Shown here one piece after another: positions 1 to 53,827 of a DNA stretch of 56,849 nucleotides (position 1 is its first letter; the number at the start of each line of letters is the position of its first letter). Location of the stretch: the IMG/VR virus record IMGVR_UViG_3300032323_001633, positions 1-56,849 of that record; one strand, written 5' to 3'. Origin of the DNA: a virus. Lineage: Duplodnaviria; Caudoviricetes. Made by a program: the position numbers and the translations under genes. The notes under the pieces were generated by a model, which did not search any database, had not been told where the DNA came from, and saw only the letters and a list, made by a program, of their open reading frames with translations.

Positions 1-535
1 CTTGTTGGGCTTGTGCATCTTGAGCAGCTTCAAAAGTCCAGCGAGCTGACAATTTACGTGTCTTAGCTTCAACTGTTTGTTTCAAGATTTGAATGCTTAG
101 TTTGTTACCTGCTACGCCTTCTAAAGCTGATGTAGCAGAAGCTCTACCTGCGTCTGAACCAGAATAACCTTCAGCAATCTTGAATGGGCTTAGTGCCTCT
201 TCGCCAGCTGTTGTAGATCCACCTGTTGTTCTGCTGAGTGTATCAGAATAGCGAACACGTAGAGTGTGGATTTGACCAACTGGGCCAGTCATTGGTTGTA
301 CACCAACTAATTCGTTAGCAATAACGGTTGGCATTACACGTCTGATCACTGGAAGGATCACACGATTTAGGGTTGCTACGTTACCGGCGGATGTAGCACC
401 AGCGGTGGCACTTTCTGCGAGATACTTGCGGGTATTCTCTAGAGTGGTTGCCATTACTGAACGCTTGTTACCTTGAAGACCTTCTAATAGGGCCTCTTTA
501 GTCTCCGACCAGCGTGACTCGAGTAATTGTGACAT
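1..535 (-). CDS. gp23: Major capsid protein, T4 gp23-like (N-terminal part; runs off the window edge)
   Basis: Manual translation from ATG at 535: MSQLLESRW...LNRVILPVIRRVMPTVIANELVGVQPMTGPVGQIHTLRVRY. VRR-x-P-x-IA and GVQPMTGP are hallmark gp23 motifs. SD AAGGAG upstream; follows the scaffold and protease genes. Confidence 0.95.
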   Translation of the reverse strand, partial: MSQLLESRWSETKEALLEGLQGNKRSVMATTLENTRKYLAESATAGATSAGNVATLNRVILPVIRRVMPTVIANELVGVQPMTGPVGQIHTLRVRYSDTLSRTTGGSTTAGEEALSPFKIAEGYSGSDAGRASATSALEGVAGNKLSIQILKQTVEAKTRKLSARWTFEAAQDAQAQQ

Positions 536-546
536 TATAGTTCTCC

Positions 547-1641
547 TTAAACTTTTAGTCCCGCAAGCCTGCGGATGTCAAATATCTCAGCGGTTTTTTC
601 TTCTTTACCGCTGGATTGAGGTGCCTGTTTATCGCCTGTAATTTCTTTGCCTTCTGATAGTACTTTCTTCGCCGGTGTACCGCCATTCATTACTGCTGGT
701 AGGTATTTGTCGAAAGCTGTACGTAGCTTTTCTGTTTGTGTTGACTCAAGTAGACTTCCCATTACTTCACGTTTATCTCCAGTCAACGGTCCTAGCAATT
801 CGCTCATAACTTCCTTGCGTTGGTTGTTTTCTTTGATAACACGTAGTTCACGATCTTTTTGTGCTACTTGTTCTTGTGCTTCTGCAACAATCTTTACTGC
901 TTCTTCTAATTCGGCTTCTCTAGTCAGCATAACTTTAAGAAGTTTTGCTGTTTCAGATTTCTCATTTAGATGACTTGCAGCGTATTCGCTTGCGAAGCTT
1001 TCAAAAATCCTGCGACCAAAGTCGTTTCTACGAGCTGATTCAATGTCTTCCTTGAGCTGAGTCATTTCAGAACGTAGTCCGTTCTGCACTGTTTCTGCTA
1101 CTTTTGTGGAAGCTGCTGTGATAAAATCTTTCTTGAGATTGTCAAACTTAGCTCTGCTTTCGCGTACTAATTTTACTTTAGTTTCGGCTAGGTCTTTCTT
1201 ATCTGTGTGGAATTCTGCGATTTCTTTCGCCAGGGCATCCACGATAAAGGATTCTAATTTAGCTACATTGTTTGCAACTGTTTTGCGATCTTCGTGTAGT
1301 TCTGCCAATTCTTTGTTAAGATTATTAAAGATGAATGATTCCATTGCTTTGGAATCGTCTTTCATTTTCTTAGCATACTTGGCACGGGCTTCGATAAGTC
1401 CTTGGCGATCTTCTGCCAATTCACCTAACTCTGCCTGTAGACGGTCAGTTAGCATAGCTTCTACAGCTTCTACCATTGCGCCTTTGTCGTGCTCATACTT
1501 CTGAGCAAATTCTTCACGTAGTTCAGCAGTTACTTGGTCACGGCTTTCTTGAATTCTGCTTTCCCAAGCTGATTCAATTTCCGATTTGATTTCTTCGGAA
1601 ATCACATTGTTTTCAAACAATTGTTTTACGATGTCTAGCAT
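547..1641 (-). CDS. gp22: Prohead core scaffolding protein, T4 gp22-like
   Basis: 364-aa E/K/A-rich coiled-coil protein between the prohead protease and the capsid gene, matching T4 21-22-23 synteny. SD AGGAG. Confidence 0.8.
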   Translation of the reverse strand: MLDIVKQLFENNVISEEIKSEIESAWESRIQESRDQVTAELREEFAQKYEHDKGAMVEAVEAMLTDRLQAELGELAEDRQGLIEARAKYAKKMKDDSKAMESFIFNNLNKELAELHEDRKTVANNVAKLESFIVDALAKEIAEFHTDKKDLAETKVKLVRESRAKFDNLKKDFITAASTKVAETVQNGLRSEMTQLKEDIESARRNDFGRRIFESFASEYAASHLNEKSETAKLLKVMLTREAELEEAVKIVAEAQEQVAQKDRELRVIKENNQRKEVMSELLGPLTGDKREVMGSLLESTQTEKLRTAFDKYLPAVMNGGTPAKKVLSEGKEITGDKQAPQSSGKEEKTAEIFDIRRLAGLKV

Positions 1642-1658
1642 GTGATTCTCCTACTGGG

Positions 1659-2297
1659 TTATTTGAGACCCCTGATGATTTTCATCAGACTCTCTGCTAA
1701 GTATTTCTGTGCCTTTGGGTCGCCTTGGACTTCCTGTGCTATCTGGTATGCCTTATAACCGCCTGTGTTATTGATTAAGTGTTCGTATACTGGTGTAGGG
1801 TAAGCGCCTGGGGCACTTGGCTGTGCTACAATGTCTACTGTAATAATTTCAAAACCTTGTACTTTTCCGCTGCTGTCAACTTCGCCGGATCCCCTGGAGC
1901 TTACACCCAGTTTAACTCCCGACTCTAACATGGTCTGAATCAACTGACCCATTGGAGTTGGGAGGATTTTAAGTTTTCCGTAGCCGTTAGGACCATCCAT
2001 CCACATCTTGGTTATCATGTGACTCACACGATCAAGATTGATTTTTAAATCCTGAGGATGATCAACTTCTCCAAGAACGGAGTAGCCACCAGCGATCTGT
2101 TCATTGAGCGTTTTGACAGCCCTGCCAATTTCTTCAGAAGAGTAAACACGCTGATTTGCATTACGGATGTCTCCTTGAATGCAAATGCCGTTTAGATGCA
2201 GCGACTTTCTGCCGTCGCTGCCTTCGTCGCGCTCCAAGACAATCTTAGCCTGGTCAAAACTCAAATGTTCTGATAGAGTAGTTTTCACCTTTGTCAA
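1659..2297 (-). CDS. gp21: Prohead core protease, T4 gp21-like
   Basis: Motifs NANQRVY, LGEVDHP, INLDRVSH, TPMG, GVSSRGSG (catalytic Ser) and DIVAQPS. Confidence 0.95.
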   Translation of the reverse strand: MTKVKTTLSEHLSFDQAKIVLERDEGSDGRKSLHLNGICIQGDIRNANQRVYSSEEIGRAVKTLNEQIAGGYSVLGEVDHPQDLKINLDRVSHMITKMWMDGPNGYGKLKILPTPMGQLIQTMLESGVKLGVSSRGSGEVDSSGKVQGFEIITVDIVAQPSAPGAYPTPVYEHLINNTGGYKAYQIAQEVQGDPKAQKYLAESLMKIIRGLK

Positions 2298-2303
2298 GTC
2301 CTA

Positions 2304-3131
2304 TTACCTACGACCACGGAAAAGACTTTGCTTGTTGTCAGCGGATTCTTTTGAACCTGCTTTTTCAGCACCGTGTCCTGGCTCTTTCTTAGAAAACGCA
2401 TTACCGTTCTTAGCACCAGGAACATTAATATTACCTAAATTGTCTTCTTTAGCTTTGTTACCTGCTAGGCCACCTGCTGTACCTTTATCACTTGTGTCTT
2501 CTTGACCAAACTTTAAAGATGCACCGCCCATATCATTCTTGCTAAACTTTAGACCGCCGCCGTTGCCGTCAGCTTTTTCAGCAGCGCCTTTCTTTTCTGC
2601 GCCGTGACCTGCTGGAACTTTCTCAACATACTCACGTACAGTTGCTAGGTCCATGTCGTCTTTCATTTTTTCATCGCCCATGTCGCCCATGTCGTCCATG
2701 TCGCCCATGTCGTCGCCGCCTTTGAGTTCGTCAAATTTAGCTTGTAGTTCGTCAACAATGCTGTCTAGATCTTGGAAAAGTTCTTCTTCAGATTTTTCTT
2801 CACCTTCTTCGTCATCCATTTCTGCATCTAGATCACCTTCTAGGTCATCAGTAGGGTCTCCGCCCATTGCAGGCATTTCGTCATCGCCTTCAATGGCAAT
2901 GTCTTCAAATTCTTCGTCGACTTTGTCTTCGTCGTCTTCTTCAGAAGATTCTTCTACTTCTTCTTCATCTTCGTCTTTTTCTTCTTCTTCAGCGATTTCG
3001 CTGTCGATTAAAGATTCATAAATTTCGCGAGATGCTGTAACAACATACTCGTGGAATAATTCTTCTGCTTTAGCTTGATCGTCGTTGACCAAATGCTCAA
3101 GCATCTGTTGTAATAATTTATTGTCGGCCAT
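2304..3131 (-). CDS. Highly acidic prohead core protein (gp67/gp68-like position)
   Basis: Very D/E-rich. Start moved to MADNK (3131) because SD GAGGAG lies just upstream. Sits between the portal and protease genes, as T4 core genes do. Confidence 0.6.
   Translation of the reverse strand: MADNKLLQQMLEHLVNDDQAKAEELFHEYVVTASREIYESLIDSEIAEEEEKDEDEEEVEESSEEDDEDKVDEEFEDIAIEGDDEMPAMGGDPTDDLEGDLDAEMDDEEGEEKSEEELFQDLDSIVDELQAKFDELKGGDDMGDMDDMGDMGDEKMKDDMDLATVREYVEKVPAGHGAEKKGAAEKADGNGGGLKFSKNDMGGASLKFGQEDTSDKGTAGGLAGNKAKEDNLGNINVPGAKNGNAFSKKEPGHGAEKAGSKESADNKQSLFRGRR
2674..2709. repeat. 9-bp tandem repeat TCG(C/T)CCATG x4 encoding DM-G/D repeats
   Basis: tcgcccatg tcgcccatg tcgtccatg tcgcccatg read directly. 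Confidence 0.85.
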
Positions 3132-9709: not shown

Positions 9710-10131
9710 AGTGTATTTCTATAAGACTTTAGAGCAAATAAGTCTTGACTGTCAAGAGGTCTACCTTGCAGAACTTTGTCAACGGTAGAACCTAATTCTT
9801 TATCGCTGATATCCCCACGATAAGTTCTTAATTTTTGTAGACTTGCGGTGTCTAAAGACTTGCCGGACATGGCTTGATCGATCAACGTCTTAAGTTCGTT
9901 ATTGTCAGTGGGTGCTGAATCAGATTTAGTTTTAGATGATTTTGTTCCAGAGGGCTCAAACCATCTCGATGGAGTTAATAGTTTATCCATCTTATCTTTG
10001 CCAGTGTCATATTGTTGCTTGACGTTGGTACCATCCAACCATTGTGATGGGTCTAATAGTTTTCCCATCTTAGACTTGCCTTTCTCGTAGGTCGCTGGTC
10101 CAACTTCTACTACAATATCACGTATTTTCAT
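9706..10131 (-). CDS. Hypothetical protein with internal duplications; candidate internal head protein
   Basis: N-terminus MKIRDIVVE; two pairs of repeats; overlaps the upstream gene by ATGA. Confidence 0.65.
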   Translation of the reverse strand: MKIRDIVVEVGPATYEKGKSKMGKLLDPSQWLDGTNVKQQYDTGKDKMDKLLTPSRWFEPSGTKSSKTKSDSAPTDNNELKTLIDQAMSGKSLDTASLQKLRTYRGDISDKELGSTVDKVLQGRPLDSQDLFALKSYRNTL

Positions 10132-11300
10132 TTTCTAAATACGCTGATTGTGCCTTGTGATAATCCAGTTTCAAACATTTTTTGCTTGTGCATTTCCACA
10201 CGTTGAGCTAAGGCTTCCGACAATGCATTTCCGTAATTATTTTTACTGGCATTCTGTTGTTGCAGTGTATTAGCCATCTGTCCAAAAACTTTATTGCCTG
10301 TGGATTTTGCTGCGGCTGCTGCTTGACGCTTTTCACGTTTAGCAATCGCGCCAGGTGTTTGACTAACTTGACCTGCTACCTTGCCACCTGTTTTCTTAGG
10401 TGGAGGTTGGTTAGGATTATCTGCGGCTGCTGTGTTTGTTGCACTAACTGGTGCATTAGCCATTGTGTTAGCTGGAGCTGGTGCTGCTCCTGCTGCTGGT
10501 GCTGCTCCTGCTGCTTTATCAGCAGCATCAGATGCGTCCCTGTCAGCCTGAGATTGAAATGGTTGTCCTGTATTACCATCAAATCCAAAACCAGTACCGC
10601 CGGCTGCTGGGCTGGCACCTGGTTTAGCTGCAGGTGCCGCTGGTGCTGCTCCTGCTGCTGGTGCTGCTCCTGCAGCTGGTGCTGCTCCGCCTGCTGCTGG
10701 TTTAGGATCAGGAGTTGCCATTGATTTTTGTAGCAACTGTAAAATTCTCTGCTTGCCTTTCTTATCTAACTTATCTACGTTAGCTTTTACTTGTGCATAT
10801 ACCGTTTGACCTGCTTTAGCAGTAGACTGTTGATCTACTGCTGCGGTTGTTTTAGCCAAAGCAGCACCTGCTGCGCCTGTCTGTGCTGTTGCTGGTGCGG
10901 TTCCTTTAGGACCTTGTGCATTAATATCTTGTGCTGAGGGTGGTGCGCTGCCCGCTGTTGGTGCTCCGCCTGCTGCTGGTGCTCCACCTGGTGCTGCTCC
11001 CGCTGCTGGTGCTGCTGCTCCGCCTGCTGCTGGTGCTGCTCCTGCTGCTGGTGCTTCACCGCCGGCATCGTATCCAGGCTGTCCTTTATTAGGATCCGGA
11101 TCGTCGCCTACAAATGCTTTGCCAGCTTGATAACCTTTCTTCATAGCACGACCTGCACCTACCACTCCGCCTGCCACTGCTCCAACACCTTTGGCAAGTC
11201 CGCGAGCGGCGCCGCCTACAACAGATCCAATTTTATTTAAGATTGGACCTTCTTCTATTTGCTGAAGTTGTGATTCAGTTAAAATTTCGTTAATTCTCAT
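10128..11300 (-). CDS. Ala/Pro/Gly-rich candidate internal head protein
   Basis: N-terminus MRINEILTE; GAAPAA repeats; several L/I-x-E sites. Confidence 0.7.
   Translation of the reverse strand: MRINEILTESQLQQIEEGPILNKIGSVVGGAARGLAKGVGAVAGGVVGAGRAMKKGYQAGKAFVGDDPDPNKGQPGYDAGGEAPAAGAAPAAGGAAAPAAGAAPGGAPAAGGAPTAGSAPPSAQDINAQGPKGTAPATAQTGAAGAALAKTTAAVDQQSTAKAGQTVYAQVKANVDKLDKKGKQRILQLLQKSMATPDPKPAAGGAAPAAGAAPAAGAAPAAPAAKPGASPAAGGTGFGFDGNTGQPFQSQADRDASDAADKAAGAAPAAGAAPAPANTMANAPVSATNTAAADNPNQPPPKKTGGKVAGQVSQTPGAIAKREKRQAAAAAKSTGNKVFGQMANTLQQQNASKNNYGNALSEALAQRVEMHKQKMFETGLSQGTISVFRK
10477..11056. repeat. Three clusters of imperfect 18-bp repeats (TGCTGCTGGTGCTGCTCC) encoding GAAPAA
   Basis: Clusters near 10477-10514, 10639-10700 and 10960-11056. 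Confidence 0.85.
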
Positions 11301-11301
11301 A

Positions 11302-12816
11302 TCAAGCGGTTCCTAGTTGTTTGGTAAGGTAAGCAATCATGCGTTTTCTATCTTTAGTATTTAACTGCGCAATTGCCTTTTTAACTTCTGCATATCCGCC
11401 AGTTGCTGCTTGAGCTTCTGGTGCAGCAGAAATTTTTAAATCTGTATAGACTTTTTTCACTACATCATCGCCAACTCCAGCAGCAGTTAACACTTTAGCT
11501 ACTTCTTCGCTGTCTGTGGGAGATCCAGCTTTTTGCCAAGCTGAATTTAATTTATCAGCAGTGAATTTAGTTGTTAAATTCTTGCCAACAGTTTTTAATT
11601 TATCCATGCCTTTAGCAGCAGCACCTTTGATAAAGTCCATCGGACCTTCGTCTAGTTGTTGATGTGTGCAGACTCTATTGAAGATCATATAAATTTGACC
11701 TTCACTTAATTTTTTACCTGTGGCAGCAAATCCTTCTTTTGGTGCTGGAGTTGCTGCTTTTTCTCCGGCGGCACCTGCTGCTTGTCCTGCTGCTGCTCCA
11801 CCAACAGCTGTCGCTGCCTGTGTTAGGCCTTTGATCCACTGCAACAGACTGTCGTTGTTAAATGCCATTTCTTTGGCAAATCCTGCAACATCCTTCATTC
11901 GTGCTTTGTAATCTGCAGAATGAACCAATCTTCCAAGATCTTGAAGTTGACCAAATGCTGAAGTATCGCCATTTTGTATACCATTTACAGCTGCTCTGAT
12001 CGCAGATGCAGCATCTGCATCAACAACAACATCAAACCCTTGAGTCATTTCTTTCATTTCCATGCCGCCCAAGCGCAATTCTCTTGTTGCCTTGAAACTT
12101 ATTTTTTCAAGCCCGTCGGCGATTTCTATTGATTTTTCACGCAGGCCAGCGGCCCACTTACCAATACCAGCCATTGCGGCTGCTGAGATGCCCGCAACAA
12201 TACCTGCTGTTGCTCCACGTCCGATCGCAGTTGAAGCTTTTTGACCTTGCAGCAAACGGTCAGCAATGTTAACAATACCTACAGCAATCGCAGTTCCTGT
12301 GCCAATGGCCAACACGCTTGCACCTATGCCGCCTGCGACTGCAACACCTAATGCTGCGGCAACAGATCCTGCAATGCCCAGTAAGAATTTGTGTAGTTTA
12401 GGATTATTCTTGGCATACTCACCGTACTTGGCCAAACTGGCTGCTAATTTTGGATTCTTTGCTGCAATCGATGATTTGATCTCTTCAAATTTTTGATCAA
12501 AGGCTTTTACAGGTGTGCTGCTCTGTAACATGCCCCCAAACTTATTAAACCAAGCATCGCTGATTTTGCCAGGAGCATCTTTAACTTTGCCAAGCAGTGT
12601 ACGATCAGAGCCTTTTTCAATAGTCGTGAATAGCTGTTGTATTTGATCAGGTGTTAGTGCAACTTCACAAAGGATAGGATGTATTTCTTTTTCCCATTGA
12701 GTGAAGTAGGTATCACCTTGACCAATGCTTTCAAATATACTTCTACGAGAAGTATTTTCAATAACATCAAAGTTTGATGATAGATTATTGTTTTCTATTA
12801 GATTTTCAATGCGCAT
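11302..12816 (-). CDS. Candidate internal head / ejection protein with a hydrophobic hairpin
   Basis: N-terminus MRIENLIE; hydrophobic stretch FLLGIAGSVAAALGVAVAGGIGASVLAIGTGTAIAVGIV; AATAAATA upstream. Confidence 0.65.
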   Translation of the reverse strand: MRIENLIENNNLSSNFDVIENTSRRSIFESIGQGDTYFTQWEKEIHPILCEVALTPDQIQQLFTTIEKGSDRTLLGKVKDAPGKISDAWFNKFGGMLQSSTPVKAFDQKFEEIKSSIAAKNPKLAASLAKYGEYAKNNPKLHKFLLGIAGSVAAALGVAVAGGIGASVLAIGTGTAIAVGIVNIADRLLQGQKASTAIGRGATAGIVAGISAAAMAGIGKWAAGLREKSIEIADGLEKISFKATRELRLGGMEMKEMTQGFDVVVDADAASAIRAAVNGIQNGDTSAFGQLQDLGRLVHSADYKARMKDVAGFAKEMAFNNDSLLQWIKGLTQAATAVGGAAAGQAAGAAGEKAATPAPKEGFAATGKKLSEGQIYMIFNRVCTHQQLDEGPMDFIKGAAAKGMDKLKTVGKNLTTKFTADKLNSAWQKAGSPTDSEEVAKVLTAAGVGDDVVKKVYTDLKISAAPEAQAATGGYAEVKKAIAQLNTKDRKRMIAYLTKQLGTA

Positions 12817-12839
12817 GAATGATCCACTGTATGATTGTT

Positions 12840-12847
12840 TATTTATT
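12840..12847 (-). promoter_or_regulatory. Late-type promoter AATAAATA
   Basis: One mismatch to TATAAATA, about 24 nt upstream of the 12816 start. Confidence 0.55.
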
Positions 12848-12849
12848 GT

Positions 12850-13306
12850 AAAAACGAGCTTACGCTCGTTTGCGTTTTCGCTTGTCGCTCAACGCGATTG
12901 TCTTCTTCTTAATTGATTTACATTGTAATTGCGAAGCAATTCAAGTATTATGCAGATTGTTCAGTCACACTTTGCCCAGGCCGGGCAAAGATAAGAGCAT
13001 TATGCGAGTTGCACAGTACACTCTAGCGTTACAGCGTTACAGAGGCGGTCATCCGGTACCTCGAGCTGCGTCTTTATACGACGGCGGTGTATACATTTAC
13101 GCTAACAAATGCACACACGTAGGGTATTTCTCCCTTCTTTTTGCCTTGTTTTTCTTTTCAAATAACCAAATCGCAGGTCTTAGTAGCGATCGTCATCCTT
13201 TCGGGTAGTGGTTAAGCACCTTTGCGGCAAGGTTTTCCATCCCTGTGTACACGTAGACCAGGTTTAGAGCGCACGAAATTAAGCCTGCGCCAGCCAAAAA
13301 ACCGCT
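12850..13306 (-). ncRNA. Candidate large structured non-coding RNA, family unassigned
   Basis: Only long intergenic gap in the window. About a dozen hairpins; G-U pairs valid only on the minus strand; GUAA and GAAA tetraloops; possible pseudoknot. Confidence 0.65.
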
Positions 13307-13741
13307 TTATTTTGCCTGAGATTGTTCTAATAGACGCTGTCTGAGTATATTTGAACCGCCTACTCTGACGTTTATAATGCCATTATAGTAGTCGTCGGAT
13401 TCTAAAACCCTGCGTTCAAATTGCTCTCGTGCTTCTAAATATGATAGTTCTGCCTTGGATTTGCAAAGGTAAAGTATTTCTCTTGTGAAGTTTTCCGGAC
13501 CTAATGATTGGACGTCTGCGTTTAACCTGTCAGATGAACCATAGTATTCGCGCCAATCGCTTTCTACTACACTTCTTCTTTTAAGTTTTTTGCCTTTGAG
13601 TGGGGGTTTAGTACGTTTAAATTGTGCTAATTTCTTGCCTATGTACTTCTGTCCGGTGATTTTATTCGTGATTATATAAACAAAGCCAATATAGCCTTCT
13701 GGGATTTCGTCTACTGGTTGATTTTGAAACGTCCATTGCAC
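13307..13741 (-). CDS. Stand-alone GIY-YIG endonuclease (Seg-like catalytic domain only)
   Basis: GFVYIITN...KYIGKK, YYGSS, REIL, conserved Glu in SYLEAREQ, and YYN; 144 aa; GTG start. Confidence 0.85.
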   Translation of the reverse strand: MQWTFQNQPVDEIPEGYIGFVYIITNKITGQKYIGKKLAQFKRTKPPLKGKKLKRRSVVESDWREYYGSSDRLNADVQSLGPENFTREILYLCKSKAELSYLEAREQFERRVLESDDYYNGIINVRVGGSNILRQRLLEQSQAK

Positions 13742-13752
13742 TCTTTAATTAG

Positions 13753-13971
13753 TTAAAGCTTCTTGCCTCTCATGCCTTTTCTGGATTCTTGCTGTGCCTT
13801 TCGTTTGGCCTGTATTTCTACTCTTATGATTGATGCCTCTGTGCGTATTTCTGATAGCCAGTGTCGTGCCTTGATGCCTGCTTCGTTGGATTTTTTGTGG
13901 TGAAAACGATCCTGCCATTTAAAGTATTCTTGAAAGGCATGGATCATGCGATCGTGTGCGTCTGAACTCAT
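13753..13971 (-). CDS. Small basic helical protein resembling the Hc1 (histone H1-like) family
   Basis: F..K.NEAGIKAR..L.EI......R.EIQ pattern with a K/R-rich tail. Confidence 0.45.
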   Translation of the reverse strand: MSSDAHDRMIHAFQEYFKWQDRFHHKKSNEAGIKARHWLSEIRTEASIIRVEIQAKRKAQQESRKGMRGKKL

Positions 13972-15746
13972 GCTACAATTTCTATATCATTGGAATAGCT
14001 GGTGAATCCGTTTTCTTTGATCACTTTGAGTACGTGATTAACACGGCTGGTCAAGTCATCTCTATGCGAAATTAAAAACACGTTCTTGTCACGCTCACGA
14101 GTCATGCGTTTCAGCACAGCAATGCTAGATTCAACACCACTGGCATCCATGCCTGAATCCACAAGTTCGTCAATGAACAACAAGTTAATACTGGTGTATA
14201 GGTTTTCCCATACATCACGGAACGCCCATGACAACGATAGAATCAATCTGTTACGTTCACCGCGGCTTAGATTATCAAAATCTAGATCCTGTCCTAGTTG
14301 TGTGATAATCACAGTTAGGTCATTTTGGAATTCCACTGTGTGCGGCAGACCAATCTTGTCCAAATAGTAAGTCAATCGTTGATTCAAGAATGCAAGATTC
14401 TGATCAATTATTCGTTTGCGAACAAAACTATCTTTGTTAGTCAACAGTTTATGCAAAAACTCTTGATGATCCTTAACACGCACCAACTCGTTGAGACCGT
14501 TCCAATCTATTTCCTGTACCGCTGTTTCTTTGAGTTCAACAATCTGATCATCGTACGGATTTTCTTCCGCAGTCTTGATAGTGATATCACGTTCTAGACT
14601 GCCCAGAGTGTTTTTATGATTTAATGCTTGTTCTAAACTGTCATAGGTCACTGCAGGACATGCACCTAGTTCTCCTAGCAGAGATATAGCTTCAGTGATC
14701 ACACTGAGCTCTTCAAGATGTTCGTTGATAGCACCGCGGCTTTCTTCAATTTGTGTAGACTTAGCAGACATGATTTCTGTGTGCTTGGAATCGTGAAGCT
14801 CTTGACCGCAGGTGTGACACTTGTGTTCTGTTAGACTAACTAATTCTCGTTCCAGCTTTTCTAAAATACGCTGTTCTTTTTCCAAAGCCGACGTCTGTTT
14901 AGCACTCAGCGATGCTAGACTCTCGTGTTCTTTTTTGTTTGCATTCCAATCTGCTAAAGCTCGCTGATTGAGAATTTCTTGATCGATGTCTATGTCGCTG
15001 AGTCTATCTATGCTCTTAAGCAAATTAGTCAGTGAAGTTTCTTTTTGTTCTTCCCACATACGCTGTTTGCGTATCAACGATTCTATGCTCTGTTGTATTC
15101 TTTCGTTACTGGCTTTGACGGTTTCAATTCTTGTGTTTTCTGTCGCAATGCTGTCTTTGCTGATCTTAATTGCATCTTTGAGAGCTTCTGCTTTTTCTGA
15201 CAGTATGGTAATGCCCAACAACTGTTCAATAATAGCACGTTGGTCTGCAGCCTTCATGCTTAAGAACGGTTCTGTGTAGGTGTTTAAAGCAATAAGATGC
15301 TTGAACATTTCGTGTTTCATGCCAAACACTTCTTCAATGGCCTTTTGTGTTTCTCTGCTGTCACCTTGACTTTCGTCAAGATCGTTGAGCTCCTGTTCCT
15401 GATCGTTGATGCTGAATCTCAACAGATTAGGTTTACGGCCTCGTTCAATATGATACTTGACACCATCTTTTTCAAACGTAACAGTACACAGCATGCCTTT
15501 GCTGTTGATTTTATTGATAAGATTGTCACGCTTGATGTTAGTCAGTGCCTGCCCGTAGATAGCATAGCTGAGACCGTTGATGATAGTGGTCTTACCTGTG
15601 CCATTGCGAGCTCCGCTATCATCACCTCCTAGGTCTAAGTTCTCGCCTAGTACCAAAGTAAGTTGTCCGCGATCGAAATCTATGGCCTGGGTTTGATTGC
15701 CCACGCTCATAAAGTTGCGTACTGTGAGATTATTGATTTTAATCAT
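13968..15746 (-). CDS. gp46: Recombination ATPase, T4 gp46 / SbcC / Rad50-like
   Basis: RNFMSVGN, Walker A NGTGKTT, zinc hook CHTC in a coiled coil, signature LSRGE, Walker B LLFIDE, and ISH. Confidence 0.96.
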   Translation of the reverse strand: MIKINNLTVRNFMSVGNQTQAIDFDRGQLTLVLGENLDLGGDDSGARNGTGKTTIINGLSYAIYGQALTNIKRDNLINKINSKGMLCTVTFEKDGVKYHIERGRKPNLLRFSINDQEQELNDLDESQGDSRETQKAIEEVFGMKHEMFKHLIALNTYTEPFLSMKAADQRAIIEQLLGITILSEKAEALKDAIKISKDSIATENTRIETVKASNERIQQSIESLIRKQRMWEEQKETSLTNLLKSIDRLSDIDIDQEILNQRALADWNANKKEHESLASLSAKQTSALEKEQRILEKLERELVSLTEHKCHTCGQELHDSKHTEIMSAKSTQIEESRGAINEHLEELSVITEAISLLGELGACPAVTYDSLEQALNHKNTLGSLERDITIKTAEENPYDDQIVELKETAVQEIDWNGLNELVRVKDHQEFLHKLLTNKDSFVRKRIIDQNLAFLNQRLTYYLDKIGLPHTVEFQNDLTVIITQLGQDLDFDNLSRGERNRLILSLSWAFRDVWENLYTSINLLFIDELVDSGMDASGVESSIAVLKRMTRERDKNVFLISHRDDLTSRVNHVLKVIKENGFTSYSNDIEIVA

Positions 15747-16753
15747 AGGTCGTTATAAATTTCCAACAGTAATTTTTTATCATAGGTATCGCTGTCTATG
15801 TTATTGATCTGATTCATCACGATAGTATCCACAGATTCGAATGTGATATCGATGGGATTTACTGCGCTTTCTACTTCTACTTTTTCTGGGATCAGCATCA
15901 ACTCACGCAGATTGTACTGCGGCATGAATTGTTCTTTGATAAAGTTTGCTTCTTCGAATGTAATAGGCAGGTCAATAGTAACTCGACAATGCATCTTTTC
16001 ACGAAGCAGTTCGTCAGGCCTATCGATGATCTGACTGAGTTTATAAGTTCTATATATAGGCTGATCGGGCCAACTATGATATTCGGGCTTACCGCCCCAT
16101 TCTAGTATCATCATACCGCGATCGTCGTCACCTGCATCCGCATAGTTATGCGGAAAGGCATTGCCTATATAGACCACGTTGCCTTTTTGTTGTCGCTTGT
16201 GAAAGTGTCCAGTAAACACCAATTCTTGATTTTGAAAGTGTCCGGTCTGTAATTGACCGTGATCGGGCATCTGCACCATGGCATTCATGTAAAAATGCGG
16301 CAGTTCAAGATGGCCGAATATGTATCTGCTTTTCAGTTGTTTTACTGTGGTCCACTCGTCACCAATCAGCCAAGGCATGATAGTTACATCGCCTTCTGTG
16401 TACAGTTCACGTATAGGCACGATGTTAGGAAACAGGCGCATAAACTCAACAGAGTTGATTTCACGCTTGTCTTTGTAGAACAGATCGTGGTTGCCTAGAA
16501 TAAAATAGACTTTTTCAAAACTTTGACTGAGTTTTTCTAAGTTTGACACGGTATAATTCATAGTACTCACATCAGTGGTACTGCGATTATGATGCCAATC
16601 ACCTAGAAAAATTGCAGTTTCGCAACCTTGTGCTTTGGCAGTATCACAGAACCAAGACACAAAATTTTCACAGTCCTGGTTGTGTGTACGACTACCGCTT
16701 TTAAGGCCGAAGTGAATATCGGTAAAACATGCTGCTTTTTTGAATAGACTCAT
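15743..16753 (-). CDS. gp47: Recombination nuclease, T4 gp47 / SbcD / Mre11-like
   Basis: Phosphoesterase motifs DIHFG, LGDW, GNHD, GHLE and GHFH; overlaps the gp46 start. Confidence 0.96.
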   Translation of the reverse strand: MSLFKKAACFTDIHFGLKSGSRTHNQDCENFVSWFCDTAKAQGCETAIFLGDWHHNRSTTDVSTMNYTVSNLEKLSQSFEKVYFILGNHDLFYKDKREINSVEFMRLFPNIVPIRELYTEGDVTIMPWLIGDEWTTVKQLKSRYIFGHLELPHFYMNAMVQMPDHGQLQTGHFQNQELVFTGHFHKRQQKGNVVYIGNAFPHNYADAGDDDRGMMILEWGGKPEYHSWPDQPIYRTYKLSQIIDRPDELLREKMHCRVTIDLPITFEEANFIKEQFMPQYNLRELMLIPEKVEVESAVNPIDITFESVDTIVMNQINNIDSDTYDKKLLLEIYNDL

Positions 16754-53421: not shown

Positions 53422-53436
53422 TTCAGCACATACCTA

Positions 53437-53471
53437 CTCCTATAAATAAACTACGCAGTTTATATTAGGAG
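53437..53471 (+). promoter_or_regulatory. Late promoter TATAAATA (53441-53448) within an SD-sequestering hairpin
   Basis: CTCCTA (53437-42) pairs with TAGGAG (53466-71); ATAAACT (53446-52) pairs with AGTTTAT (53457-63). Confidence 0.7.
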
Positions 53472-53476
53472 AATGT

Positions 53477-53827
53477 ATGCAACAGCAGCTGAAAGCAGCT
53501 TTGGATTTTGCCAATTATCAACAGACTTTTTCTATCCAGAAAAAAATCCTCAAAGAAAGATCCGAAGCCAAACTCAACTATGGCCACAGTGGTGGTATAT
53601 TTCGCATTGACAGAGATCTGTTAACCTTTGTAGAAATGCTGTGCGCCAAAGGCAGACTCACAGACATAGTACTGCTCGACGTTAACCAAAATCCCGTGTT
53701 GATCAGTGATGTACAGACATTCTGTGATGAAATATTCAGCAGATATTTTGAAGTCACTAATGAATATTTCGCTCAATATCAGCAGATCAAAAAAAGCAGA
53801 TCTGTGGAAAAATTAATACAGTCATGA
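53477..53827 (+). CDS. Hypothetical protein heading the glycosyltransferase operon
   Basis: 116-aa ORF with SD AGGAG; ATGA overlap with the next gene. Confidence 0.75.
   Translation: MQQQLKAALDFANYQQTFSIQKKILKERSEAKLNYGHSGGIFRIDRDLLTFVEMLCAKGRLTDIVLLDVNQNPVLISDVQTFCDEIFSRYFEVTNEYFAQYQQIKKSRSVEKLIQS

Follow-up and report, generated by a model that had tools for sequence, protein, structure and literature searches.

The stretch analyzed here, i.e., the window, covers the 56,849 nucleotides (nt) of virus record IMGVR_UViG_3300032323_001633, which is a fragment of a T4-like virus. We focus on positions 12850-13300 of its minus strand, which follow the gene of a short GIY-YIG nuclease and encode a conserved, non-coding, covarying RNA of about 450 nt. 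Listed in the order of the minus strand, the locus comprises the following genes.

15743-16753, minus strand: gp47-like phosphoesterase
13968-15746, minus strand: gp46-like SMC/AAA protein
13753-13971, minus strand: open reading frame (ORF) of 72 amino acids (aa)
13307-13741, minus strand: GIY-YIG nuclease gene (144 aa, SegE type, PF19835), catalytic domain only, outside the RNA
12817-13306, minus strand: gene-free stretch of 490 nt between the GIY-YIG gene and the 504-aa ORF
ATG at 12816, minus strand: gene of a 504-aa low-complexity protein, next after the RNA

An earlier note on this sequence had pointed to the only large non-coding gap of the window, starting at the GIY-YIG stop codon. This is what we find: 12817-13306 is with 490 nt the largest stretch without an ORF of at least 120 aa, and the runner-up (53422-53823) has 402 nt. 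For the latter, no Rfam family matches at gathering scores. The two genes after the RNA (504 and 390 aa; 10128-12816, minus strand) encode Ala/Gly/Pro-rich proteins of low complexity and vary more among relatives than most of the locus.

Within the gap, the Rfam family RF01718 (Polynucleobacter-1) is found at 13160-13295 (minus strand) with 101.2 bits compared to a gathering score of 37 (expectation value E of 8.9e-21). The match spans positions 1-141 of the 141 model positions, i.e., it is full length, and the threshold is also passed by 15 of 20 related loci scanned. Apart from RF01718, the whole window shows no match to Rfam at gathering scores. When E values up to 10 are considered for 12700-13800, the only additional similarities are to cow-rumen-2 (22 bits vs. 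a cut-off of 66), which we regard as chance, and to SNORD39 (14 bits). The Rfam models of GOLLD, ROOL, HEARO, OLE, raiA, group I/II introns, transfer-messenger RNA (tmRNA) and RNase P give no match, and no transfer RNA (tRNA) or tmRNA is detected by ARAGORN. The earlier note had proposed a new large phage RNA class, to be checked against Rfam. The proposal is half right, as the strong RF01718 match removes, by the criterion of the note, part of the novelty. That is, the RNA is real, large and pseudoknotted, and its remaining ~310 nt (13160 down to 12850) lie outside every Rfam family, while its 5' 136 nt are Polynucleobacter-1.

Sequence conservation was assessed among the relatives of the GIY-YIG protein, which are found on more than 585 viral contigs, 80 of which were examined for the downstream gap. 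The gap sequence is recognisably conserved 3' of the GIY-YIG gene in 60/80 loci (68-98% identity); the rest are mostly contigs that end too soon or more remote relatives. Across relatives, the gap length is steady at about 450-520 nt while the next gene changes. A blastn search of the gap against 50,697 phage records gave no match. A protein-coding reading of the gap was rejected, since the 112-aa antisense ORF (12870-13208, plus strand) is not conserved; the longest ORF of 67 homologous RNAs has a median length of 65 aa and reaches at least 90 aa in 13 of them.

The RNA nature of the minus strand is visible in the folding statistics as well as in covariation. Compared to shuffled sequences, its fold shows a z-score of -2.70 (1/100 shuffles as good), while the plus strand reaches -1.01 (20/100). 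For the covariation analysis, 40 non-redundant homologues were aligned (alignment A1) and scored with a structure of 88 base pairs, which is composed of the Rfam helices, the stems suggested in the earlier note and two pseudoknots from a covariation scan. Given this model, standard pairs are formed in 89.4% of the alignment cells, compared to 35-44% when partners are slid by 1-3 columns, and both partners change in 68 of the 88 pairs. The covariation score of 0.393 has to be compared with 0.055-0.086 for slid and 0.169 for shuffled partners, where none of 500 shuffles reaches the observed value. The 40 homologues thus share the conserved, covarying structure for which the earlier note had asked. 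RNAalifold applied to the raw MAFFT alignment recovers only part of the structure plus one doubtful long-range pairing. The individual elements of the RNA and its 3' flank are as follows.

12850-13300, minus strand: whole structured RNA (~450 nt); the 3' end is taken as the U-run of the terminator, the 5' end is approximate
13160-13295, minus strand: 5' domain, i.e., RF01718 with helices P1-P4 (101.2 bits; model helices 1-7)
13121-13135, minus strand: AGGG/CCCU hairpin after an A-rich linker (helix 8; both-side changes in 4/4 pairs)
13087-13118, minus strand: long hairpin of 12 base pairs (bp), 13118-13107 with 13098-13087 (helix 9; both-side changes in 12/12 pairs)
13099-13104, minus strand: 5' strand of the first pseudoknot (PK1), UAGCGU, within the loop 13099-13105 of the long hairpin (helix 10)
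13024-13029, minus strand: 3' strand of PK1, ACGCUA (helix 10; 95.7% paired, both-side changes in 3 pairs)
13078-13082, minus strand: 5' strand of the second pseudoknot (PK2), GUCGU (helix 11; 97.9% paired, both-side changes in 4/5 pairs)
13048-13052, minus strand: 3' strand of PK2, AUGAC, in the loop of the GAGG/CCUC hairpin
13032-13068, minus strand: nested helices CAGC/GCUG and GAGG/CCUC (helices 12 and 13)
12998-13010, minus strand: loop R1, AACUC plus the variable 8-mer GCAUAAUG, with a cluster of invariant A1 columns
12970-12990, minus strand: hairpin CUUUGCCC/GGGCAAAG between the twin loops R1 and R2 (helix 14; 97.5% paired)
12946-12958, minus strand: loop R2, AAUCU followed by the 8-mer GCAUAAUA, its first 7 letters being the same as in R1
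12927-12940, minus strand: UUCG-capped hairpin (helix 15; both-side changes in 4/4 pairs)
12872-12895, minus strand: 3' domain, GCGUU/AACGC stem enclosing a near-invariant GAGCG..AGCGAAA (helices 16-18)
12850-12870, minus strand: intrinsic terminator AACGAGC-GUAA-GCUCGUU followed by a U-run (U5), read from the sequence (helix 19; both-side changes in 4 pairs)
12840-12847, minus strand: T4-late-promoter-like AATAAATA box, 30 nt before the ATG at 12816, conserved past the terminator in A1

Most stems drawn before hold on A1. Covariation upholds GCGCA/UGCGC, CCUG/CAGG, CCUU/AAGG, the multiloop stem UAACC/GGUUA, CC-GAAA-GG, GAUCGC/GCGAUU and AGGG/CCCU; it is likewise found for the long stem, CAGC/GCUG, GAGG/CCUC, CUUUGCCC/GGGCAAAG, the UUCG hairpin, GCGUU/AACGC and the terminator hairpin. 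Reading the sequence also confirms the three G-U pairs that had been reported for the long stem, then given with 13 bp. A local CGUC/GACG hairpin is not supported, as the same bases form PK2 instead; the inner CGG/CCG stem is invariant on A1 and overlaps PK2. Each of the RF01718 helices 1-7 has pairs with changes on both sides, with P2 being the weakest (68.5% paired in a poorly aligned stretch). Using nhmmer, the 3' domain is also recovered in distant phage relatives and some bacterial loci, where it lies equally far downstream. An extension of the RNA constraint into the end of the GIY-YIG ORF was considered and dropped, since the third-position entropy is not lowered there.

The 3' end is marked by a G+C-rich hairpin directly followed by a U-run (12870-12850), even though a simple terminator scan of the window does not list this minus-strand terminator. 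Behind it, the AATAAATA box resembles the T4 late promoter with its consensus TATAAATA. The heptamer ATAAATA occurs 8 times in the window, 6 of which sit 8-39 nt ahead of an ATG-start ORF of at least 100 aa, a spacing expected for T4-type late promoters. Given the box in front of the gene at 12816, the latter forms a separate unit; among phage relatives, the gene after the RNA is variable or unrelated. The terminator, the conserved box and a variable next gene at steady gap length together argue for the RNA as a stand-alone unit. They also bear on the view that the RNA regulates the downstream gene in cis, as its leader. Such a role is suggested by the position upstream of a same-strand gene and by the entry 'cis-reg: y' for Polynucleobacter-1 in the table of the 2010 survey (PMC2864571). 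We hold it to be highly improbable: a terminator and a separate promoter-like box stand between RNA and next gene, and the downstream genes are unrelated across phages and bacteria (integrase, the defence candidate PDC-S14, LysR). The label 'cis-regulatory' does not fit the full-length RNA.

The RNA further carries the twin loops R1 and R2, which are located about 50 nt apart on both sides of the CUUUGCCC hairpin and follow the pattern A-R-CUC or A-R-UCU plus ~8 nt. When evaluated in fixed alignment columns, the CUC and UCU flanks are invariant in 73/73 rows. The subsequent 7-mer is the same in R1 and R2 in 66/73 rows, covering 13 distinct 7-mers, compared to 17.3 +/- 3.1 for shuffled partners, where the 73 rows were pre-selected for at least 6/8 R1-R2 identities. 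When loci are counted without such selection, anchored on R2 alone, 118 of 133 unique viral loci repeat the sequence exactly at the R1 position. Phage 7-mers include GCAUAAU, GGAUAAU, AGAUAAU and GGAUGAA, and bacterial ones AUCGAAA, AGCGAAA and AUCAAAA. Relatives in which no RF01718 domain is detected still keep the module. It is unlikely that the R1/R2 identity stems from gene conversion, since the CUC and UCU right beside the 7-mer never converge. Small local hairpins within R1 are, as judged by eye, not conserved.

The RNA is not restricted to phages. Searching one-genome-per-species bacterial contigs with a pattern of the 5' domain yielded 42 stretches, which were subsequently sorted by profile searches into 28 with the 5' domain, 13 chance matches and 1 cut stretch. 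Among the 28, 3 are phage-type (GIY-YIG gene plus phage 3' part) and 25 are bacterial-type without a GIY-YIG gene. The latter include isolate genomes titled Polynucleobacter rarus and Limnohabitans as well as complete Burkholderiaceae chromosomes; in three of the bacterial-type genomes, RF01718 scores 86-95 bits. Bacterial RNAs are ~100-150 nt longer than the phage RNA (roughly 550-650 nt) and have the same plan as the latter, with 5' domain, PK1, PK2, twin loops, a hairpin between the loops and terminator. PK1 is kept with other letters in 19/22 cases (GGCACU/AGUGCU 14, GCCACU/AGUGGU 3, AGCACU/AGUGCU 2). PK2 (GUUUC/GAAAC and similar) is found in 20/22, for which the control is weak (13/22), and the GAGCG..AGCGAAA 3' domain was located by nhmmer at the expected distance in ~10/25 loci.

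Within bacteria, the distribution of the RNA is patchy. In a sample of 151 genomes from the genus of a bacterial-type carrier (the genome of locus L152, titled Polynucleobacter rarus), 18 pass the cut-off, some with 2 copies; in a family-level sample of 151, 2 pass. Its neighborhood is dominated by a gene of the family DUF6641, which is located divergently ~150-250 nt upstream of the RNA in 23/25 bacterial-type loci. A second count gives 25/26, and further bacterial-type loci from the genus-sample genomes add 5/5. The protein itself provides few hints. It has 1883 relatives, and among the 120 matches listed all source-given names are 'hypothetical protein'. It matches no PADLOC or NCBIfam model; for its predicted structure, with a predicted local distance difference test (pLDDT) score of 81, the best Foldseek match in PDB has an uninformative E of 0.39, and the best Z of 5.2 from a wide VIA-align search is noise for helical models. 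No paper naming DUF6641 was found in the literature. DUF6641 has no match in the 56,849-nt window and is found in 0 of 115 viral RNA loci.

Further genes accompany the bacterial RNA. A second conserved gene (~142 aa, no Pfam family) follows DUF6641 in 14 loci, e.g., at 952-1380 (minus strand) of locus L167; in L166, the two genes are found in swapped order. On the other side, a tyrosine integrase is encoded directly 3' of the RNA in 5 loci. In L152, the N-terminal 148 aa of the downstream gene (2-2398, minus strand) match the PADLOC defence candidate PDC-S14 with an E of 1.5e-51, and an IS3-type transposase is located beyond the DUF6641 gene. Overall, the genes downstream of the bacterial RNA (integrase, PDC-S14, LysR) are mutually unrelated.

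The bacterial RNA is preceded by a conserved upstream box and its own 5' hairpin, with no ORF upstream on that strand. By eye, TAAATA (as ATAAATA or CTAAATA) is located at a fixed spot in all 24 aligned bacterial RNA genes; in the respective loci (L131-L170), it sits ~70 nt upstream of the RF01718 start and is followed by the 5' hairpin and AAUCACUACCGA. The box is a poor sigma-70 -10 box and similar to the ATAAATA late-promoter-like boxes of the phage. It is thus conceivable, if speculative, that host copies of the RNA could be switched on by infecting T4-like phages.

Such a host-phage distribution can be read in terms of conflict, i.e., the phage RNA could be a captured host-island RNA (from a unit of DUF6641, the second small gene and the RNA) that serves as decoy or antidote against an island protein. 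The patchy bacterial copies (18/151 in the genus sample, some twofold; 2/151 in the family sample), the almost constant DUF6641 neighbor, the integrases right after the RNA in 5 loci and the PDC-S14 match in one locus fit this reading. Furthermore, viruses carry the RNA with DUF6641 in 0/115 loci, and the two direct repeats recall repeat-type antitoxin RNAs. We nevertheless rate this scenario as rather unlikely. DUF6641 matches no PADLOC or NCBIfam model and its predicted fold resembles no known structure in an informative way; the genes are arranged divergently instead of in the order RNA-terminator-toxin; transfer may have gone either way; and known antitoxin repeats are far simpler than this RNA. 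It is to be seen as a specific version of the view that the RNA is stand-alone and acts in trans.

We now turn to the nuclease gene. Its 144-aa product matches Pfam's PF19835 (SegE_GIY-YIG) with an E of 7e-37, where residues 3-123 cover positions 1-123 of the 123 profile positions. This agrees with the earlier note in that the nuclease consists of the catalytic domain only, with no appended domain. Its best PHROG is phrog_447 (E 4.6e-41, 148-position profile), which is labelled 'NAD synthetase'; PADLOC 'HEase' models match as well. Judged by its sequence, the 'NAD synthetase' label of phrog_447 and of phage records looks wrong, the sole domain being that of a nuclease. Using tblastn, the family is found in 693 phage records, mostly from cyanophages, and this short family is widely labelled 'NAD synthetase' there. 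The closest cultured carriers are the phages Melnitz and ACP17. In Melnitz, the gene comes after that of the ribonucleotide reductase small chain and a single short hypothetical ORF and is itself followed by a 148-nt gap; in ACP17, it lies alone on the opposite strand without a gap. Neither genome shows an RF01718 match anywhere or a comparable gap.

Among viruses carrying the RNA, gene and RNA are closely linked. Of 115 viral loci found by the 5'-domain pattern, 102 have the GIY-YIG gene directly upstream and 8 one extra ORF away, 3 are cut and 2 are without it, i.e., the gene is present in 110 of 112 judgeable loci. The 102 genes end 43-114 nt before the search pattern and show identities of 50-97%. 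A second, narrower pattern for the twin-loop region finds gene and RNA adjoining in 42/42 judgeable loci. The extra ORF was read in four loci (L193, L250, L254, L265), where it encodes 257-334 aa without a Pfam family over cut-off; the other four (L215, L220, L237, L244) were judged by position. Also there, the RNA starts 52-76 nt past the stop codon of the inserted ORF. In locus L293, the slot is taken by a gene (1669-2184, minus strand; 600-82 nt before the RNA pattern) for a PF24608 'phage putative PDDEXK endonuclease' (E 1.1e-27), while L234 shows an unrelated context and no GIY-YIG gene. In L028 (3405-4180), whose GIY-YIG gene is 92% identical, an 86-aa ORF directly follows this gene; only the last part of the RNA is found ~600-770 nt downstream (weak mid part, clear 3' domain), and its 5' domain seems, from the sequence, to have been replaced.

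The histories of gene and RNA differ. With regard to nucleotide identity to the window, the GIY-YIG genes form two groups (85-94% and 66-70%). Their identities correlate with 0.45 to those of the RNA 3' part and with 0.55 to those of gp46, compared to 0.88 between RNA 5' and 3' part and 0.74-0.78 between RNA and gp46. In several loci, identity drops from the GIY-YIG gene towards the RNA; for locus L018, the identities are 94 (GIY-YIG), 88 (RNA 5' part), 77 (RNA 3' part) and 74 (gp46). This kind of decay from the nuclease gene into the RNA is as would be left by a co-conversion tract.

Expression was studied using six metatranscriptome runs with part of the stretch, four of which were compared based on assembled contigs only. 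Contigs of the four runs cover the RNA and both flanks. They bridge the GIY-YIG gene into the RNA (e.g., 13038-13420 and 13045-13489), and one (12725-13066) bridges the terminator into the next gene. A separate promoter for the RNA was looked for in the phage and not found; a TATAAA-like stretch inside the GIY-YIG ORF is not kept in all relatives. Given the bridging contigs, the missing promoter and the start of the RNA right past the stop codon, one may regard the RNA as a cis-acting 3' element of the GIY-YIG messenger RNA that affects stability, processing or translation. We consider this very unlikely: the bacterial RNA has its own upstream box and 5' hairpin with no upstream same-strand ORF, the RNA follows a different ORF in 8 viral loci, and ~450 nt with two pseudoknots are out of proportion for an element of a 3' untranslated region.

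The earlier note had offered, as its other alternative, an undescribed ribonucleoprotein of nuclease and RNA. Here, the RNA would guide, activate, restrain or localize the GIY-YIG nuclease, with the twin loops as specificity elements. Their adjacency in 102/115 viral loci (plus 8 one ORF off), which extends down to 50% protein identity, fits such a cooperation, as do the start of the RNA a few tens of bases past the upstream stop codon, even with an inserted ORF, and the contigs bridging gene and RNA. The nuclease has no DNA-binding domain of its own, its one clear replacement (PF24608) is another nuclease, and the twin loops vary like guides. The distribution supplies what the note had named as refuting the partnership, namely RNA homologues unlinked to GIY-YIG genes: the RNA occurs with the same twin loops but without a GIY-YIG gene in 25 bacterial-type loci, and the nuclease family is widespread without the RNA, e.g., in Melnitz and ACP17. 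In addition, an extra ORF separates the two in 8 loci, their histories differ, and no loop-complementary target is found in window or flanks. Taken together, we judge a functional partnership to be unlikely.

We consider it probable that the locus encodes a stand-alone, trans-acting large folded RNA with a homing-type nuclease gene lodged beside it. Neither the GIY-YIG gene nor the downstream gene is an obligatory companion of the RNA. For the GIY-YIG gene, this follows from the 25 bacterial-type loci without GIY-YIG and from Melnitz and ACP17 without the RNA. The RNA is carried by T4-like lake phages and, among freshwater Burkholderiales, by a minority of the chromosomes. We infer that R1 and R2 are equivalent sites through which it acts in trans. 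Here, the invariant ACUC or AUCU and the same lineage-specific 7-8 nt would contact two copies of an outside partner, which may be a dimeric protein or a nucleic acid to which the loops base-pair. Phage transcription of the GIY-YIG gene probably continues into the RNA and so produces it. This nuclease gene would be of the homing type and free-standing, its product would not be a partner of the RNA, and its spread would take the 5' part of the RNA along.

Several observations weigh against this picture. The GIY-YIG adjacency in viruses is very strong (102/115, 8 more one ORF away, 2 lacking); a selfish spreading gene is usually patchier, which leaves some chance of a functional, perhaps lineage-specific link between gene and RNA. 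Furthermore, the protein is well conserved and lacks the DNA-binding domain of characterized Seg enzymes, which makes it a poor fit to a classical homing enzyme. Concerning the twin loops, the mentioned pre-selection of rows has to be considered, and no consistent partner is found inside the RNA, in bacterial or viral flanks or in the window; matches in bacterial flanks occur in unrelated contexts, e.g., the start of an IS3 transposase. Finally, strand, ends and levels cannot be read from the metatranscriptome contigs, some of which may stem from carried-over DNA.

A further idea, which we regard as decidedly unlikely, is that the twin loops are programmable specificity elements of an undescribed RNA-directed system that shows the same 7-8 nt twice to two nucleic-acid sites. 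Carriers would then pair the scaffold with different effectors, i.e., a GIY-YIG or PD-(D/E)XK nuclease in T4-like phages and DUF6641, the second small protein and neighboring tyrosine integrases in bacterial islands. If true, this would explain why a nuclease without DNA-binding domain is kept beside the RNA across deep divergence.

An orphan Rfam motif of 141 nt is thus seen to form just the front of an RNA with three to four times its size. Only a small number of large, intricate bacterial and phage RNAs without assigned function are known, and every addition has led to new research. What distinguishes the full RNA are its two pseudoknots that covary across phages and bacteria, its shared distribution in host and phage and its constant bacterial protein neighbor (DUF6641). 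The jointly changing twin-loop sequences provide a concrete handle for finding the partner and hence the function. In addition, the analysis corrects the label 'cis-regulatory' of the motif and the label 'NAD synthetase' under which phage annotation lists the short GIY-YIG family.

Among known systems, phage-encoded antitoxin mimics are the first to compare with. Blower and colleagues are said to have described in 2012 a phage pseudo-ToxI RNA that mimics a type III antitoxin. As for ToxI and pseudo-ToxI, the phage RNA is homologous to the RNA of a patchy host locus beside a small protein gene and contains direct repeats. In contrast, the repeats number only two and are embedded in a large scaffold with pseudoknots, DUF6641 is oriented divergently and matches no PADLOC model, and the genes downstream of the RNA vary.

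The nuclease resembles the Seg proteins of T4 (SegA-G). It has the SegE-type catalytic domain (SegE gives the Pfam family its name), sits between conserved T4-like phage genes, has a mosaic past, and its slot is also used by a nuclease of a different family. T4 segB is likewise located beside RNA genes, namely in the tRNA gene cluster. Unlike the T4 enzymes, the protein has 144 aa without a DNA-binding domain and is nearly fixed in this phage group instead of sporadic.

Nucleases and recombinases with dedicated RNAs offer another comparison. IscB and TnpB use an omega-RNA encoded beside the nuclease, and the bridge RNA of IS110 has two specificity loops. The likeness consists in a structured RNA beside a small nuclease gene, whose loop sequences change while the scaffold stays. 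However, the neighbor is a GIY-YIG protein, and no RuvC or IS110 protein is involved. Unlike omega-RNA pairs, the RNA occurs without nuclease (25 bacterial-type loci) and the nuclease without RNA (Melnitz, ACP17). Unlike the bridge RNA, both loops have the same sequence and are not two guides, and no matching target was found.

With respect to its architecture, the RNA resembles GOLLD, ROOL, OLE, raiA and HEARO, which are large, intricate RNAs shared by phages or mobile islands and bacteria. In common are the large, intricate fold, the phage/island plus bacterial distribution and the origin from lake samples. Compared to GOLLD and ROOL the RNA is smaller, and none of the respective Rfam models scores on 12700-13800 for E up to 10. 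Large ornate RNAs of phages and bacteria are treated in PMC12286853. A 2023 screen of IMG/VR reports candidates of 29-151 nt, among which pieces of the RNA's 3' part may be found.

The closest known relative is the Polynucleobacter-1 motif, which Weinberg et al. (2010; PMC2864571) report from Burkholderiales and fresh water. This survey is the only paper we found that names the motif. Positions 13160-13295 are a full-length member, with the same hosts and habitat (Burkholderiales, fresh water). In contrast to the model with its 141 positions, the motif is here only the 5' third of a phage RNA of ~450 nt, and the 3' part is kept in distant phage relatives where no RF01718 domain is detected. 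Beyond the model, phage and bacterial RNAs share two pseudoknots, the twin loops and a terminator.

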